A DNA stretch of 7,277 nt from a virus (taxonomy: Duplodnaviria; Heunggongvirae; Uroviricota; Caudoviricetes), in IMG/VR virus record IMGVR_UViG_2778261154_000009, positions 1 through 7,277 of that record; one strand, 5' to 3'. The position numbers were made by a program, and so were the translations under genes. Positions within the stretch are counted from its first letter, which is position 1, and every line of letters starts with the position of its first letter. Shown in pieces: positions 215-7,277 of this stretch. The notes below the pieces were generated by a model. The model was given only the letters and a program-made list of their open reading frames with translations, was not told where the DNA came from and searched no databases.

Positions 215-305
215 TTCCTCTGGTCCTGATTCAGGCGCGAGCAATCCCCTGACGCATCGCGCCATAATTAAAAGAAAGTGAATTAATTAAATATTCGTCG
301 TGGTA

Positions 306-830
306 TTAAATACCGGCATCCTGTTCAAACGGAATAATAGAAAAATCTTCAATGCCTGATTTAACTGTAATTCCGGCGACACCTGCGACTGCTTTCGGCT
401 CCAGTAAAATCGCTTCCTTGTTGATTTCCTGTTTCGTGCGAATAAAGCGTTGAAGGCCAAGACGCTCCAGTGTTTCCATCACCGCATCCACACCGCGAAT
501 ACTTACTGATGGTGGGCGCTGACGCCATGACACATCACCGGTTACCAGGTTTGCCGTCTTCACCTTGCCGCCGTTCGTCAGTTCGTCACGGTTCGCTTCA
601 CACCATCCCTGAACGCCTTTTGAAAGGGTTTCGATACTGGTTTTAAGCGGTGCAATCTGTGAGGCGTATTTCTCCGTAATCTCAGCGATAGCGTCATTCA
701 TTTCCGTTTCAAGTCGTGCTGCTTCGCGTTGCAGGTCCCCAATCCGGCGGATATCACATACCACGGCATCGCGGGATTGCGGAACATAAGCCGCTGCGGC
801 GTTCCTGATTCGTTTTGCGGGTTTAGCCAT
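306..830 (-). CDS. gam: Host-nuclease inhibitor Gam (Mu Gam / Ku-like DNA end-binding protein), 174 aa
   Basis: Full ORF with SD AGGAG 9-10 nt upstream of the ATG at 830-828. Sequence (MAKPAKRIRNAAAAYVPQSRDAV...GIEDFSIIPFEQDAGI) and length match Mu-family Gam as I recall it. Confidence 0.9.
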   Translation of the reverse strand: MAKPAKRIRNAAAAYVPQSRDAVVCDIRRIGDLQREAARLETEMNDAIAEITEKYASQIAPLKTSIETLSKGVQGWCEANRDELTNGGKVKTANLVTGDVSWRQRPPSVSIRGVDAVMETLERLGLQRFIRTKQEINKEAILLEPKAVAGVAGITVKSGIEDFSIIPFEQDAGI

Positions 831-848
831 AAATAAAGCTCCTGTTAA

Positions 849-1136
849 TTAATATTCACTGTATACAATGCCGGATACAGCACGATTGCTTAATTCCATC
901 TTTTGGGCTATCACATGAATAGCCAGCCCTTCTTTATAAAGTTCACGGCATAAATATTTGTCGTGCTCACTGACCTGGTATGCACACAACGATATTCCGT
1001 GCCTTCTGGCATGTGCCTGTAGGGCGGTTGGGGCAACTTTCAGTTTTTTCGCCATTTCCTCGACGGTCATTTTTCCGACACTGGCTTCGATAAATTCCCG
1101 GTCTTCGCGTGACCAGCGTTTACGATTACACGTCAT
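849..1136 (-). CDS. Hypothetical early protein, 95 aa from ATG 1136 (99 aa if GTG 1148), putative HTH DNA-binding
   Basis: ORF in operon orientation. N-terminal segment WSREDREFIEASVGKMTVEEMAKKLKVAPTALQAHARRHGIS has an HTH-like pattern. The upstream gene's TGA (1151-1149) abuts this start. No family assigned. Confidence 0.6.
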   Translation of the reverse strand: MTCNRKRWSREDREFIEASVGKMTVEEMAKKLKVAPTALQAHARRHGISLCAYQVSEHDKYLCRELYKEGLAIHVIAQKMELSNRAVSGIVYSEY

Positions 1137-1148
1137 TCCGGTCACCAC

Positions 1149-1568
1149 TCAGTACAACAGAGGCTCGCGCAGTGATGCCGGAATATGCCGCAGCGATAAC
1201 TGAACCGCTTTCAGGACAAGCGAGGAATAACAGCAGCGCGCCCAGCCTTTTGCCATTAACCGGTAATCGCGCCAGATACGCTGCCACATTTCACGGGCTT
1301 TCGGGTCTGACGCGCAGATGTATTCGCGGTCCATGACGTATTCCCATAAATCCACATTGAAGGCATTGCCAAACGTAATGGCGCGGAATACCGCCTCTCC
1401 GCAATAACGCGCACAAATGCTGTAATGGTCAAATGCAATCAGGTAAGTCTTTTCGCCATACCCCTCAACTTCGCGCGCACAAATAAATTCGCGCAAGTCT
1501 CCACCATTGTTATTACGCTCTTTAATCCGAATTAATGCCCGGATTTCATTTCGGATTTTGACGTTCAT
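1149..1568 (-). CDS. Hypothetical early protein, 139 aa, Cys/His-containing
   Basis: ORF with SD AAGGAA 9 nt upstream of the ATG at 1568-1566; the longer track ORF starting at 1592 lacks an SD. Contains HYSICARYC (H-x3-C-x3-C) plus further Cys residues. No recognisable family. Confidence 0.6.
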   Translation of the reverse strand: MNVKIRNEIRALIRIKERNNNGGDLREFICAREVEGYGEKTYLIAFDHYSICARYCGEAVFRAITFGNAFNVDLWEYVMDREYICASDPKAREMWQRIWRDYRLMAKGWARCCYSSLVLKAVQLSLRHIPASLREPLLY

Positions 1569-1582
1569 TGTCAGCGTTCCTT

Positions 1583-1846
1583 TCAGTGGCATGTTTTTTC
1601 AACAGCCATTTCAGTGACACGGCCACCGGTGATGACACTATCGTTTTTCAAAATCTCGATAGCTTCATGGGCTGACTCATTAATTATTTTCTGGCTTTTA
1701 TTAAGCACCAGTAACGCCACCATGCCAGCAAGTGTACCCTCATCACCGTCCAGTTCCGCACTACCGTCCACCGCAATGCTGGTGCGCAAATTCAGTCCTT
1801 TAATTCCAGATACTGTATTTTTAATTTCAATAATTACTTTTGCCAT
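1583..1846 (-). CDS. Hypothetical early protein, 87 aa, acidic
   Basis: SD GAGGAA 8 nt upstream of the ATG at 1846-1844; the track ORF begins at an upstream GTG (1861) without an SD. Stop overlaps the next gene start by 10 bp if 1592 is used, consistent with operon packing. Confidence 0.6.
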   Translation of the reverse strand: MAKVIIEIKNTVSGIKGLNLRTSIAVDGSAELDGDEGTLAGMVALLVLNKSQKIINESAHEAIEILKNDSVITGGRVTEMAVEKTCH

Positions 1847-1878
1847 TTTGTTATTCCTCACAAATAAATAAGCCGTTA

Positions 1879-2106
1879 TTAACGCCAGATAATCTGGCAG
1901 CCATTAAGGCGGGCCGTCCATACTGAACGGGCAACCCCTGATTTATGCTCCATAATCCTGACAGCGTTTCTGACCAGCTCCGGTGGTGGGCAGGTGATTT
2001 CAAGTACCGGACGCGCCACGCCGAGATATGATTCATTTACGTGACTCCCGTGCGCCTGTAACCAGTTCTGCGCATCCGTTGCCATTTTTATATTTCGTGA
2101 CATCAT
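1879..2106 (-). CDS. Small early protein in the position of Mu kil (immediately downstream of B), 75 aa
   Basis: SD AAGGA 9 nt upstream of ATG 2106-2104, 16 nt after the B stop. Kil assignment is positional only; I cannot verify sequence similarity, so no symbol is given. Confidence 0.6.
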
Positions 2107-2121
2107 GGTTTATGTCCTTTA

Positions 2122-3072
2122 CTACCAGTTCAGTAACCTGGGGTTGCTGTAAGCCTCCTTAAAAGCCGCTTTAATGTGACTTTTATTCAGGGATGTGCCT
2201 GCACCTTTTGCCGCCAGCCACGCATGATTCAGTGTGTGAGTTAATACACGCAATCCCCCGGGCTTTTCGGCTACCCTCATCAGCAGGTCCAGCTCATCTT
2301 CCTGTGTTACTCCCCATGCTTTGGCTACAGCCATCACATCGGTCTTTTTTACTTTGCGCAGTTGTTTTGTCATGGCAAAACGGCTGAACAGACGGGCCAG
2401 TTCATCAGTCCCACGACGGGTGGCATCCGCCATCTGTTTCGGGTTGCCAATTAAAACCATCCCCACGCCAGTGGCATCCTGAATGGCGCGTAATTGCTCC
2501 AGACCATCCACACTTAAGTGATCAGCTTCATCAATAATCAGAAGGGGGTTAACACGGCCACTGGTTTCTTTACCACCACCCAGTTTTCTGCGAATGGCGC
2601 GGGTTATATTCCCCTTATTTCTTCCCGGATTATTAATTTCCAGCGCATATGCTATTTCAAGGAGGCATTCCGTTACGCTCGAATGTGCCGGAGCAAGAGT
2701 CACCATCCAGGCATTAGCTGTCCTGCGACAATATTCCCGGGCAGCAAAGGTTTTTCCGACACCCGGTACGCCAACAACAACACTGATAATCCCGAGTGAG
2801 CGCACTGTTTTAAACAGTTCATGCAAATCACAAAATGTCTGGGTCTTCACAACGCCGGGGGTACCTGACAAATTCTGCCCTTTCTGCCAGACCCGATACC
2901 ATTCCTGTAATTTGTCATACATGCCTTCAACATTGCCTCTGTACTTTCCTTTACGAAGATCAGAAAGTGTTGCCGGAGACATTCCGGCTTCATCAGCAAT
3001 ATCTTCCTGAGACTTGTCGCCCTCGTTAATCAAAGCGTTAATAGTGTTGAAAACATCATCAATATCAGTCAT
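2122..3072 (-). CDS. B: Mu B-like transposition ATPase (target DNA activator), 316 aa
   Basis: Walker A GVPGVGKT and Walker B LLIIDEADHL; N-terminal HTH-like segment (DEAGMSPATLSDLRKGKY); SD GAGGAA 6-7 nt upstream of ATG 3072-3070; located directly downstream of the transposase gene. Confidence 0.9.
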   Translation of the reverse strand: MTDIDDVFNTINALINEGDKSQEDIADEAGMSPATLSDLRKGKYRGNVEGMYDKLQEWYRVWQKGQNLSGTPGVVKTQTFCDLHELFKTVRSLGIISVVVGVPGVGKTFAAREYCRRTANAWMVTLAPAHSSVTECLLEIAYALEINNPGRNKGNITRAIRRKLGGGKETSGRVNPLLIIDEADHLSVDGLEQLRAIQDATGVGMVLIGNPKQMADATRRGTDELARLFSRFAMTKQLRKVKKTDVMAVAKAWGVTQEDELDLLMRVAEKPGGLRVLTHTLNHAWLAAKGAGTSLNKSHIKAAFKEAYSNPRLLNW

Positions 3073-3116
3073 AGTATTTCCTCGGTTATTTCAAATCAGC
3101 TTTGTTTCCTTTATTT

Positions 3117-3145
3117 AACAGTCCGTTCCCGCGGACTGTTTTTTT
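3117..3145 (+). terminator. Intrinsic-terminator-like hairpin with T7 tract in the A-B spacer, oriented for plus-strand (antisense) transcription
   Basis: Perfect 9-bp stem AACAGTCCG (3117-3125) / CGGACTGTT (3132-3140), 6-nt loop, followed by a 7-T run (3139-3145). On the operon (minus) strand the hairpin is not followed by a U-tract. Confidence 0.35.
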
Positions 3146-3147
3146 AT

Positions 3148-5244
3148 TCAGGCCAGCGGATCATCTTCTTCCTGCATGGCAAAAAGTTTTTGCATCCCCA
3201 GCCGGAAATCGCGTTCAAATTCTTCGTCATGCTCTTCTTCATATTTCGGTTGCTGAACTGCCACCACATTACCAACCGGGCGATAAACATTACTCAGCCA
3301 GGGTTCAGCCTGTTTGTGTTCCAGAATCTGAATACCTTCATCTTCAGCATCACGAATTTTTTCCTCAGCGCGTTTGCGCATTCCTTTAATACGCTGCTGT
3401 TGTTTGTGATATTCAGCACTGACAGCAAAGGCTGCGCGTTTATTGCCGTTCCATATCGCCTCACAGATAAAGCTGCCGTCCTTGCGACGTACCGTAATTC
3501 GCTCGGCGTCATGAATGTCATAACTGATAAGCACTTTGCGACCGTGTTCGTCACGCAACTCCGGCGCGTAGTAAATATTGTTCAGCCACTGAATTTCGCA
3601 GCGTCTTACCGGTCGTTCCACCATTGGGCGGAACATGTCGCGCAGCTCAAGATCACTCAGCCACTCAATTTCGGTGTCTTCTTCTGCCAGGCGTTTTTTT
3701 CTGAACTCTGTCGGGCTGTAATGCCGTCCGTTCGGTTTCATCGGCAGCTCAGAATGCGGGCGGTTGTTGTACCATTCCACGCCTTCACGAATAGCCTCAA
3801 TAAGCTCCGCCCACGATGGCAGCTCGCGCATTGCCGCTTTCTGGCGGTCGTTCAGAGGCTTGTCCTGTTGCAGGGCGTTAAACGCTGAACGCAGATCACG
3901 GTTAAGTACACGCAACGATTCCCGGTCAGCACCCTTGCCAAAATAGGTGCGATACCTCCTGGCTATACGCATCGGCAGTGTCCGGTTCAGGCGTTCAATA
4001 ATGCCGCGTCCCTGTGGATTACCGGCAATACCGGTAGGGTGTTTAATCCCCAGGCGTGGCAGAATACCCACGACCTCTTTGTCCAGCATGTCAGCCGTTT
4101 CACCGGAACCGTTATCCGAGTAATACAGGAACGGTTTTCCGTGGTTGCGAATGCCGTGCTGTATCGCACCGGCAACGGCGAACACGTTTTCGGCAAGGTC
4201 AAGACTCCAGCCAACAACAAACCGTGTTCCACCATCGATCACAAACGTGACTTCCGGTGAGAATGGACGCCCGTGGATCGGATGCGCACATTTCAGCTTC
4301 ATACCGTGACCGTCACCAATCCAGACATAATTCACCGGCATAGCTGTCCAGTCGCGGCGGGTGAATCCTTCAAGCTGACGGTATTCACTGCCGGTAACGC
4401 GCCCTTTTTGTTTCACCACTTCCGGCAGTTTTTTCATGGCATACCGGACAACATCATAGGAAGGCATCACCTCCAGCATGTACGGTTCGTCCGCATGGCG
4501 ACGCTGCCATTCTGCGACAAAATCCTCGTAGGCTTCTGACATGGGTCTGCCGTTCACCTGGCGATACTGCGCCAGAAATTCAGGCAGCCAGCTGATTTCT
4601 TCCGGTTTTATTTCGTCGCGTTTTCCCGGTGCCAGTAACAGCAGCCGTTCGGCGGCGTTCTGCGACTGGTTGTATTTCAGAACCCACTGGTAAAGTGGAT
4701 CGCGGCTGATAGTACGATTAGCGCCACGTTTTGCATTGGCGTTAACTGCGGCCTGTTGCAGGCGCTCCGGCAGCTCACCTTTACGGGCTTTTTCAACAAG
4801 AAAGTTAATGGCTTTCAGTCGCCCGAGGTTACCGGCGCTTTCCAGCTTCAGCACTTCCACCACCAGCGCAGCTCTTGCTTCAGATACCCGGCGCTGGTTT
4901 TCGGTCAGCGCATTCAGGCGTTCTTCCATCAGTTGTGGAGAACCGCGATATGCTTCGATTGCCTGGACAGCGTCAGGATTGCGTGTTTTTCTGGTAACAG
5001 CTTTCACTTCAGAAACATTGTTCTCTGTAGCCACCAGCTGTTCCACATAGCGTTCACGCAGTGCCTTTCGTGTTATTTCAGGCAGACAATCAATGTGGTA
5101 CTCAATGGCTTTTGTGCCTTCCCGACGGCGACTAACGTCACCAAGATCACGAGAAAAACGCTGTAACGCCTGTCGGATGCCTTTTGTGGTGGCTGGCATT
5201 CCTGGTACGCCGAGCAGGTCATTTACGGTAACGTACGACTGCAT
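3148..5244 (-). CDS. A: Mu A-like DDE transposase, 698 aa from ATG 5244
   Basis: N-terminus (LLGVPGMPATTKGIRQ...GTKAIEYHIDCLPEITRKAL) resembles the MuA enhancer-binding winged-helix domain. DDE core candidates WIGDGHG, YYSDNGSG and GIIERLNR. Start at 5244 chosen for SD AGGAAGG; the 721-aa track ORF start at 5313 has no SD and overlaps ner. Confidence 0.9.
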   Translation of the reverse strand: MQSYVTVNDLLGVPGMPATTKGIRQALQRFSRDLGDVSRRREGTKAIEYHIDCLPEITRKALRERYVEQLVATENNVSEVKAVTRKTRNPDAVQAIEAYRGSPQLMEERLNALTENQRRVSEARAALVVEVLKLESAGNLGRLKAINFLVEKARKGELPERLQQAAVNANAKRGANRTISRDPLYQWVLKYNQSQNAAERLLLLAPGKRDEIKPEEISWLPEFLAQYRQVNGRPMSEAYEDFVAEWQRRHADEPYMLEVMPSYDVVRYAMKKLPEVVKQKGRVTGSEYRQLEGFTRRDWTAMPVNYVWIGDGHGMKLKCAHPIHGRPFSPEVTFVIDGGTRFVVGWSLDLAENVFAVAGAIQHGIRNHGKPFLYYSDNGSGETADMLDKEVVGILPRLGIKHPTGIAGNPQGRGIIERLNRTLPMRIARRYRTYFGKGADRESLRVLNRDLRSAFNALQQDKPLNDRQKAAMRELPSWAELIEAIREGVEWYNNRPHSELPMKPNGRHYSPTEFRKKRLAEEDTEIEWLSDLELRDMFRPMVERPVRRCEIQWLNNIYYAPELRDEHGRKVLISYDIHDAERITVRRKDGSFICEAIWNGNKRAAFAVSAEYHKQQQRIKGMRKRAEEKIRDAEDEGIQILEHKQAEPWLSNVYRPVGNVVAVQQPKYEEEHDEEFERDFRLGMQKLFAMQEEDDPLA

Positions 5245-5245
5245 A

Positions 5246-5497
5246 TCACGACACCTTCCTGATAAATCCATCGTTACGATACCGGCTGGGCCAGATGATT
5301 TCTGGCGGTACACCTATAGCGTCAGAAATTACGCGTTCGTATTTTTTGTTTGGTGTGCGAACTACCGCTTTCAGTGAATCCTGAGCATAACCAGCATGGA
5401 GTGAAAGCTCCCGGAAGGAAGACCACCCGTTATCTTTGAGCGCCAGCTGAATCTTCAGCGAAGGCCAATCGCGGTCACTATCTTCTCTTTGTCTCAT
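5246..5497 (-). CDS. ner: Ner-like DNA-binding protein (Mu Ner / Nlp family), 83 aa
   Basis: Contains the Ner/Nlp signature (DWPSLKIQLALKDNGWSSFRELS...PEIIWPSRY); SD AAGGAAAG before ATG 5497-5495; stop TGA is 1 nt from the A start (TGATATG). Confidence 0.85.
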   Translation of the reverse strand: MRQREDSDRDWPSLKIQLALKDNGWSSFRELSLHAGYAQDSLKAVVRTPNKKYERVISDAIGVPPEIIWPSRYRNDGFIRKVS

Positions 5498-5526
5498 CTT
5501 TCCTTTAACCTACAAAATTACCCGCG

Positions 5527-5548
5527 CGGATATCCGGTCGGATATCCG
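5527..5548. promoter_or_regulatory. Two tandem copies of the perfect 10-bp palindrome CGGATATCCG: candidate operator sites
   Basis: Exact copies at 5527-5536 and 5539-5548, 12 bp start-to-start, in the ner-repressor intergenic region just downstream of the candidate early promoter. Confidence 0.5.
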
Positions 5549-5557
5549 TATGGATAA

Positions 5558-5586
5558 AGATTAAGATACCAAAGATTCCTTGTAAA
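5558..5586 (-). promoter_or_regulatory. Candidate early promoter (Pe-like) for ner-A-B
   Basis: Minus-strand TTTACA (5586-5581), 17-bp spacer, TAATCT (5563-5558). Predicted start lies just upstream of the palindromes. Sequence-pattern call only. Confidence 0.35.
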
Positions 5587-5629
5587 GGGTTCTTTGGTGT
5601 TTTTATGGTTTATTTTTTAATTTCATTAT

Positions 5630-5642
5630 TTATCAATGAATT
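5630..5642. promoter_or_regulatory. IHF consensus match (WATCAANNNNTTR)
   Basis: TATCAATGAATTA at 5630-5642, preceded by an A/T-rich tract, between the divergent repressor and ner starts. Mu has an IHF site in its operator region. Confidence 0.4.
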
Positions 5643-5661
5643 AGATAGAAAGGAACCAAGA

Positions 5662-6225
5662 ATGAGAAAAGCACCCCAAGGTTCTTTTCCTGCCGATGGA
5701 AAAGAACCGATTATCGAAAGAATCTTTAGGTTAGTAGAACGATACCCTTCAAGAAATGCGGCTGCTCGGGCATGGGGGATCAATGAAGGCACTTTAAAAA
5801 ATTATTACAACAGGCGGGATTACGCACCGATACCACGCCCGCATCAGTTAAAAAAGATAGCAGAAAGCGAAAATGTTACCTTGGAATGGCTCATGACGGG
5901 AGAGGGTGATGTTGAACTAAAAGATTCCAAAGAACCCAAAAAAGAGAATGCGGATAATGTTGATGCTCAAATTCTAATGTTCTTGTCATTTCTTAAACCA
6001 CAAGAAAAACAACAAGTAGCTGATGTTCTTGGGAGAAAAGGAGCGGAGCAATTACTCATTCTTCTGGATGAGCACATCCAAGAGTTGCACGCTCTAGTTG
6101 GAGTTCGTAGAGCCATAGCGTTAAGCCTTGGTAATTTGCCAGACGAAAAGGTTAGAGAGATTTACGCGTTGTCCGAAGCTAAGGGCGATCACTTAAATCT
6201 ACCTCAGAAAGCAGCCAGCGCATAA
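5662..6225 (+). CDS. c: Prophage repressor (c-like): XRE-type HTH N-terminus with a Mu-repressor-like C-terminal region, 187 aa
   Basis: SD AAAGGAA 8-9 nt upstream of ATG 5662; the track ORF start at 5605 lacks an SD. N-terminus has an XRE/Cro-CI HTH pattern (SRNAAARAWGINEGTLKNYY...LEWLMTGEG). C-terminal segment resembles the Mu Repc C-terminal region as I recall it. Divergent from ner, in the Mu c position. Confidence 0.7.
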   Translation: MRKAPQGSFPADGKEPIIERIFRLVERYPSRNAAARAWGINEGTLKNYYNRRDYAPIPRPHQLKKIAESENVTLEWLMTGEGDVELKDSKEPKKENADNVDAQILMFLSFLKPQEKQQVADVLGRKGAEQLLILLDEHIQELHALVGVRRAIALSLGNLPDEKVREIYALSEAKGDHLNLPQKAASA

Positions 6226-6348
6226 CCCAGTGCAAGTGCCTAGCTGTGCTAAAATTACATTGGTTTTGGCGCTTGCACCCATCAGCGCTATAATAAACAC
6301 CTGAATCGTTTTTGAACGGTCTTTAAAGGCTATTGTAAGAACCTGTGA

Positions 6349-6483
6349 GTTATCTTGAATGTTTTATTGATATCGAACCGTTTAACATTTTTGGACTCGC
6401 TTTATCTTGAAAACCTTGAGTTCCTAACTTGTTGATTCCAATCTATTCCCGTCTTTTTTAATCTCTTCCCGGTTATCTTGAAT
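6349..6483. repeat. Three direct repeats of TTATCTTGAA in the prophage terminal non-coding region: candidate transposase end-binding sites (attL L1-L3-like)
   Basis: Core TTATCTTGAA at 6350-6359, 6402-6411 and 6473-6482; the outer two copies are identical over 12 bp (GTTATCTTGAAT). Read inward, each contains TTCAAGATAA, which carries the TTCA element of the Mu end-site consensus. Confidence 0.5.
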
Positions 6484-6500
6484 AAATTACCTAGTCATAA

Positions 6501-7118
<618 letters not shown>

Positions 7119-7188: not shown

Positions 7189-7277
7189 GGTGATGCTGCC
7201 AACTTACTGATTTAGTGTATGATGGTGTTTTTGAGGTGCTCCAGTGGCTTCTGTTTCTATCAGCTGTCCCTCCTGTT
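7189..7277 (+). mobile_element. IS1 left end (terminal inverted repeat plus start of insA), element continues beyond the window
   Basis: GGTGATGCTGCCAACTTACTGAT terminal repeat at 7189-7211, followed by sequence matching the IS1 5' region as I recall it. Confidence 0.9.
7244..7277 (+). CDS. insA: IS1 InsA, 5' partial (first 11 codons, GTG start)
   Basis: GTG GCT TCT GTT TCT ATC AGC TGT CCC TCC TGT encodes MASVSISCPSC, the InsA N-terminus. Confidence 0.8.
   Translation, partial: MASVSISCPSC

Follow-up and report, generated by a model that had tools for sequence, protein, structure and literature searches.

Three direct repeats at the left end of a Mu-like prophage as putative sites for its own A transposase

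Described ends of Mu-like phages and the prophage end in astE

That Mu-like phages carry several transposase-binding repeats at each end is textbook knowledge, and TG/CA termini together with a 5-bp target duplication are usually taken as hallmarks of Mu-like elements. In attL of Mu, sites matching the MuA consensus are found at 6-27 and 151-172, and L2, read by eye, lies at about 112-133. Putative A sites in Mu-like phages are routinely called from three repeats per end, or from two in KS10 (PMC4378225, PMC2628397), with Mu, FluMu, Pnm1, and Sp18 being cited for such repeats (PMC2628397). The target duplication of Mu is 5 bp long (PMC5357137), and 5'-TGT termini were described as conserved among Mu-like phages (PMC4378225).

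Here, we analyzed a 7,277-bp stretch of DNA, referred to below as the window, which comprises the left part of a Mu-like prophage with the Mu gene order end-c-ner-A-B in reverse (Table 1). An original prediction, made from the letters of this DNA alone, held that three direct repeats near the prophage terminus are candidate transposase-binding sites, parallel to L1-L3 of Mu and different in specificity. In prophages identical to this one, the repressor is annotated as an HTH protein, with its start at 5662. The genes downstream of A and B (226-2106) were approximately 90% identical to phage Mu, and A and B themselves were not Mu-like at the DNA level.

Table 1. Features of the prophage end and of the adjoining genes, with positions in the window
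Feature	Position	Strand	Basis or remark
MuB-like AAA+ target-capture protein gene	2122-3072	-	Pfam Phage-MuB_C 1.2e-23, AAA_22
A transposase, Mu-family	3148-5244	-	Pfam, MuA alignment
A remainder, catalytic DDE region and Mu-transpos_C	3148-4629	-	Pfam Mu-transpos_C 2.2e-18, weak rve match
A residues ~66-205, proposed end-site recognition domain (MuA Iβ-like)	4630-5049	-	
A residues 1-65, MuA Iα-like winged helix	5050-5244	-	Pfam HTH_Tnp_Mu_1; Foldseek top hit 1tns
ner-like gene	5246-5497	-	Pfam HTH_35 1e-13; annotation in identical prophages agrees
Repressor (c-like) gene, toward prophage end	5605-6225	+	ORF; weak Phage_CI_repr match
Innermost core copy (putative L3 equivalent)	6350-6359	-	nt 141-150 from terminus; exact match
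Middle core copy (putative L2 equivalent)	6402-6411	-	nt 89-98 from terminus; exact match
L1-L2 spacer	6412-6472	-	Homologous to Mu L1-L2 spacer, by end-sequence comparison
Outermost core copy (putative L1 equivalent)	6473-6482	-	TTCAAGATAA read inward, nt 18-27; exact match
Terminal 17 bp of left end	6483-6499	-	Read inward TATGACTAGGTAATTTA; common end in five independent insertions
Predicted 4-bp target-site duplication copy AGAA in astE	6500-6503	+	Inferred from three intact relatives and LC727881; second copy beyond the window

The prophage borders the host gene astE at 6499/6500. From 6500 on, the window is 100% identical to E. coli astE. The uninterrupted gene reads GCGG followed by AGAAACCTG, and the window reads ...GTCATA followed by AGAAACCTG; the base preceding AGAAACC is G in the uninterrupted host gene, not A. 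The shared phage sequence stops at base 6499 beside five different flanks, those of the window, FDAARGOS_943, VL40, RM9088, and STEC346. These five flanks and the uninterrupted astE place the terminus at 6499 and, thus, all three repeats within the phage, 17-150 bp from its end, and 6499/6500 is the point of cleavage and joining. The possibility, raised with the original prediction, that the repeats belong to flanking host sequence in an uninterrupted astE locus is thereby settled: they are phage DNA, and astE resumes only at 6500.

None of 5,426 complete E. coli genomes carried this exact astE insertion. Positions 1 to approximately 160 of the window, next to a gam/DUF5420 region, are a multicopy IS-like sequence that recurs at 100% identity in many Stx phages and over 2,900 E. 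coli genomes; positions ~7189-7277 are IS1 downstream of astE. This IS load and identical protein matches suggest a Shigella-like host. The prophage is at least interrupted, by the IS-like sequence at about position 160, and may be truncated, so that its left-end sites are possibly inactive relics in this genome.

Repeats at both ends, termini, and target duplication

A scan of the 7,277-bp window detected three exact copies of TTATCTTGAA on the + strand, starting at 6350, 6402, and 6473 and thus spaced by 52 and 71 bp, exactly as predicted, and no further copy with up to one mismatch. The claim that the outer two copies agree over 12 bp held as well, with GTTATCTTGAAT at 6349-6360 and 6472-6483. 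A functionless origin of the repeats, by chance or neutral duplication, might be considered for a region that is AT-rich and noncoding, the more so as 0.53 matches to TTATCTTGAA with up to one mismatch are expected in the whole window and at least three were present in 5 of 200 whole-window shuffles. However, clustering is a different matter: TTATCTTGAA is the only 10-mer occurring three or more times in the window, and in 1,000 dinucleotide-preserving shuffles of the window there was not a single case of any 10-mer present three times inside 150 bp. This result, together with the conservation described next, which refutes a chance origin, shows that the repeats are not accidental, and we consider the probability of the chance explanation negligible.

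Comparison of related prophage ends, proposed as a check along with the original prediction, revealed that the 9-bp core TTCAAGATA was invariant in all 27 sites of nine end sequences, diverged relatives included, and that the adjacent bases varied. The diverged relatives compared were RM9088, STEC346, 06-00048, and the IMG/VR loci L023 and L029. The outermost core was invariant in all relatives, the middle core was kept at nt 90 in the five diverged ones with differing flanking bases, and the innermost core was kept at nt 141-142 in relatives with diverged surroundings. Cores that persist in this way while spacers diverge, and that recur inverted and at the same terminus distance at the other end (see below), are not expected of neutral duplicates. 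As judged from these alignments, an invariant core amid freely differing bases around L2 and L3 is a phylogenetic footprint on the core. Only approximately 9-10 bp per site are conserved, compared to the 22-bp bipartite site of Mu.

For the opposite end, we turned to two complete E. coli genomes, FDAARGOS_943 and VL40, whose prophages sit elsewhere in the chromosome and match the left end at 100% identity over 1.2 kb, as well as to the related STEC346; these three stand in for the right end of the window's own prophage. The 49-kb region of FDAARGOS_943 contained exactly six core matches (up to one mismatch), split evenly between the left end and the mom-proximal right end, with the three at the right end inverted, and the same arrangement was found in VL40 and STEC346, as anticipated for transposase sites in the original prediction. 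Counted inward from the terminus, the cores occupy nt 18-27, 89-98, and 141-150 at the left end and nt 18-27, 40-49, and 75-84 at the right end. Hence, the outermost core is equidistant from both termini, and a distance of 22 bp separates the first two right-end cores, which is the register of the RCGAAAR halves of Mu R1 and R2 (21-27, 43-49).

With boundaries fixed by the five different flanks and by uninterrupted host genes, every TCAAGATA-type insertion had the ends 5'-TATGAC...GCGCTTTA-3', i.e., TA...TA and not TG...CA. Three intact insertions were flanked by a 4-bp target duplication, ATTC in STEC346, TTCA in VL40, and TTTC in FDAARGOS_943. Empty sites rebuilt with one copy of the 4 bp corresponded to intact yhfX and vgrG over 300 of 300 nt (STEC346 and VL40), and GenBank record LC727881 independently annotates a 4-bp duplication for phage Mu_JNE082796. 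A 5-bp duplication was also tried; no shift of the element boundaries fits it, leaving 4 bp as the sole consistent solution. The TA...TA ends and the 4-bp duplication can be seen at 6498-6503 of the window and at 13121-13130 and 47838-47845 of locus L006, 1001-1010 and 35620-35630 of L007, and 243-250 and 35488-35495 of L012.

Several further elements lie in the noncoding DNA between the repressor gene and the repeats. At 6230-6278 and 6266-6294 there are two of these, an inverted repeat GTGCAAGTGCC/GGCGCTTGCAC just past the repressor stop codon, possibly a transcript-end structure, and a promoter-like TTGGCG-17-TATAAT pointing to the prophage end. The latter is within shuffle expectation, and a scan of 5400-6560 yielded no promoters or terminators above that expectation. 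Roughly 170-195 nt inward of the terminus, at 6303-6331, lies CGTTTTTGAACGGTCTTTAAAGG (CCTTTAAAGACCGTTCAAAAACG when read inward), a sequence that has counterparts in Mu (…AGCTTCAAAAAACGTTCAAAACC…) as well as in every relative.

Comparison with other ends and covariation with the A transposase

The resemblance to Mu extends to three sites within approximately 150 bp per end that are inverted between the ends, to outermost sites equally far from both termini, to the 22-bp distance between the first two right-end sites, and to the gene order end-c-ner-A-B. Moreover, A combines an Iα-like winged helix with a domain modeled as Iβ-like, a MuB-like partner is encoded, and homology is recognizable in the L1-L2 spacer and in the outermost bases of the right end. 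In contrast, the conserved element is the 9-bp TTCAAGATA instead of the 22-bp MuA consensus, the right-end copies are all direct, unlike the inverted Mu R3, the left-end spacing is 71/52 bp versus roughly 106/39 bp in Mu, the termini are TA...TA versus TG...CA, and the target duplication measures 4 bp versus 5 bp in Mu (PMC5357137). The proposed parallel with Mu L1-L3 was therefore borne out in part: it applies to number, orientation, and distance of the outermost site but not to the exact spacing (18-27/89-98/141-150 versus 6-27/~112-133/151-172 in Mu). When both ends of the TCAAGATA-type prophage were scanned with the 22-bp MuA consensus TGNTTCAYTNNAARYRCGAAAR, no match with up to five mismatches was obtained, while the same scan recovered L1, L3, R1, R2, and R3 of Mu itself. 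That no site fits this consensus supports the predicted distinct end-recognition specificity.

The closest A proteins, those of vB_YpM_5/6 (81% identity), Mu_JNE082796 (76%; Sp18-like, PMC10132054), Kp4866-3 (56%), and vB_YpM_Tongde (55%), belong to phages of E. coli, Yersinia, and Klebsiella. vB_YpM_5, Mu_JNE082796, Kp4866-3, and Tongde have the same A lineage, a very similar terminal 17 bp, and a core that likewise starts 18 nt from the terminus. Unlike the prophage in the window, however, these Sp18-like or vB_YpM_5-like phages have the core TTTGATAC instead of TTCAAGATA, with site spacings of 95/52 or 104/42. Three left-end copies of TTTGATAC were found in all four, and vB_YpM_5 was the only one in which three right-end copies were read. 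No TTTGATAC triple was detected in TCAAGATA-type ends and no TCAAGATA in vB_YpM_5. The terminus of the TTTGATAC type is TA in vB_YpM_5 and Tongde and TG in Mu_JNE082796 and Kp4866-3. In the vB_YpM_5 record MT374853 (L010, 4655-4733), approximately 78 bp resembling packaged host DNA connect the right end …GCGCGCTTTA with the left end TATGAAGAGG…; this record is an artificial circularization of a linear Mu-type genome.

More distant A relatives were found in SuMu and Mannheimia phages (42-43% identity) and in D3112-like phages (31%). The D3112/B3-like phages of Pseudomonas and phage KS10 of Burkholderia, with A at approximately 31% identity, also have imperfect end repeats called as putative A sites, but repeat sequences and positions are unrelated to the TTCAAGATA cores, and their termini are 5'-TGT, compared to 5'-TAT and 5'-TAA here. 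With MuA, A shares 24% identity, and it has no Pfam match to the models of Mu Iγ or DDE_2.

Alignment of eight A proteins defined the module boundaries and revealed a three-module mosaic, with residues 1-65 following the immunity type, residues ~66-200 following the end cores, and the part beyond residue 200 common to the A protein of vB_YpM_5 (~97% identity to the A protein of the window). Within the TCAAGATA group, identity over residues ~66-200 is 95-100%, and it falls to 30-50% when this group is compared with the TTTGATAC group. A survey with A residues 60-210 retrieved 59 further loci, and a contig scan returned just two loci. All seven loci with a domain identity of at least 73% and enough upstream DNA carried TCAAGATA three times, and all 26 surveyed loci with a domain identity of 65% or lower carried TTTGATA(C) three times, without exception. 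Two pairs separate this segment from its neighbors: STEC346 and vB_YpM_5 have similar c (83%) and ner (96%) and the same A N-terminus, yet different cores, whereas c and ner of the window and RM9088 are only 31% identical and the A N-terminus is not common, yet the core is the same. In these comparisons, the core type tracks A residues ~66-200 and not the repressor, Ner, or the A N-terminus.

This pattern bears on whether the repeats might be operator-type sites for repressor c, Ner, or the Iα-like N-terminus of A, with a regulatory or enhancer role. The repeats are situated just downstream of the repressor gene, which ends at 6225, and the DNA-binding fold common to the Mu repressor and MuA Iα is present here too. 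Nevertheless, the core covaries with none of c, ner, and A residues 1-65, as the two pairs above demonstrate; it recurs at the right end, where no early promoter is near; and the region between c and ner contains unrelated palindromes and no core copy. Those palindromes, which comprise overlapping CGGATATCCG elements (5518-5557) and an inverted repeat of 22 nt (5560-5581/5585-5606), are likely the repressor/Ner operators, possibly also an enhancer, and are unrelated to the end repeats. We therefore regard an operator role of the cores as highly unlikely.

Packaging (pac) signals, or sites for host factors (IHF, HU, Fis) organizing the end without transposase contact, would be another explanation for repeats in this place. 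Mu has its pac near the left end. The L1-L2 spacer of our prophage (read inward, ACCGGGAAGAGATT...CGGGA...GAT.GGA, also given as ACCGGGAAGAGATT...GACGGGAATAGATTGGAATC) is homologous to that of Mu, matching Mu nt ~30-75, which we take to hold pac, and is similar to Mu although the A sites on either side are unrelated. A candidate packaging role of the spacer fits, given the shared Mu-like head and terminase genes. It is this spacer, however, and not the cores, that is conserved with Mu; pac works at one end only, whereas the core occurs three times at both ends in inverted orientation; and two different cores, which track the A segment, occur among phages that share their enterobacterial hosts and have almost the same head and terminase genes. 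Thus, the cores themselves are very unlikely to serve packaging or host-factor binding. Within the spacer, CTAACTTGT at 6424-6432 (inward: ACAAGTTAG) is a core copy with two mismatches, located exactly 22 bp outward of the middle repeat, and relatives retain a similar AAGTTAG; it could be a degenerate fourth site or else part of the pac-like spacer.

In an AlphaFold2 model, A residues 1-260 comprise a winged helix at the N-terminus (Foldseek top hit 1tns, MuA Iα), then a disordered linker, and a confident helical domain at residues ~95-205 (pLDDT of 85-93 at residues ~110-170). According to this model, the segment of residues ~66-200, which is collinear with MuA, folds like the end-binding subdomain Iβ and is its likely counterpart. 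Neither a second half-site nor a second contacting subdomain equivalent to Iγ was identified. The covariation, and a core of 9 bp short enough to leave room for a partner, would also be consistent with cores bound by another phage protein traveling with A residues 66-200, or by A indirectly, as accessory sites. However, no other gene covaries with the cores, since B and the downstream genes are common to both core types (megablast of 226-4662 against vB_YpM_5, 89.8%), and the covarying segment itself is modeled with the fold of an established end-binding domain. Either arrangement appears very improbable to us.

Proposed function and implications of the swapped module

The inverted cores at the right end, the invariance of the cores, and their covariation with A residues ~66-200 support, at the level of sequence, the original reading of the repeats as candidate transposase sites. 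Very probably, the three copies of TTATCTTGAA are left-end sites for the prophage's own A transposase and functional equivalents of Mu L1, L2, and L3. Each A monomer would recognize the 9-bp TTCAAGATA via the helical domain at residues ~66-205, the presumed Iβ counterpart, and the outermost core at nt 18-27 of both ends would place bound A to cleave at the terminal TA-3'. The inner left sites and the three inverted right-end sites might help to build a paired-end transpososome, and with this complex the MuB-like ATPase would have the ends joined to target DNA with a 4-bp stagger. Physical binding, contact of the A domain with the core, and the order of assembly are steps that we infer, and mechanistic details taken over from Mu may not all apply, considering that the MuA consensus is unmatched and the termini are not TG/CA.

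While this kind of feature is ordinary, the points of interest are the TCAAGATA recognition sequence, the swapped module, and the noncanonical termini and duplication. We found no paper on the TCAAGATA specificity, the precedents being general ones for Mu-like transposase sites or a 4-bp duplication only; a full-text literature search with the core sequences returned only unrelated papers, and the papers on a Yersinia Mu-like phage and on SuMu contain no end analysis.

On balance, we lean toward a broader proposal of a lineage with TA-3' termini and a 4-bp stagger, in which an exchangeable Iβ-like module has been swapped in nature together with 9-bp cores, resulting in at least two orthogonal transposase/end pairs, TCAAGATA and TTTGATAC, on a near-identical catalytic scaffold. 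This lineage departs from the TG/CA termini and the 5-bp duplication of Mu-like elements. For Escherichia and Shigella prophages, it provides a delimiting rule: a 5'-TA terminus, 17 bp, and the core, with a 4-bp duplication flanking the element. Two end specificities on a near-identical catalytic scaffold amount to a natural experiment, in which the specificity swap maps the determinant to approximately 135 residues and a 9-bp core, and the two transposase/end pairs are candidates for orthogonal tools that can be tested as such. If the proposal is true, specificity would be reprogrammable by exchanging these ~135 residues, and co-resident Mu-like phages of the TCAAGATA and TTTGATAC types would not cross-mobilize.
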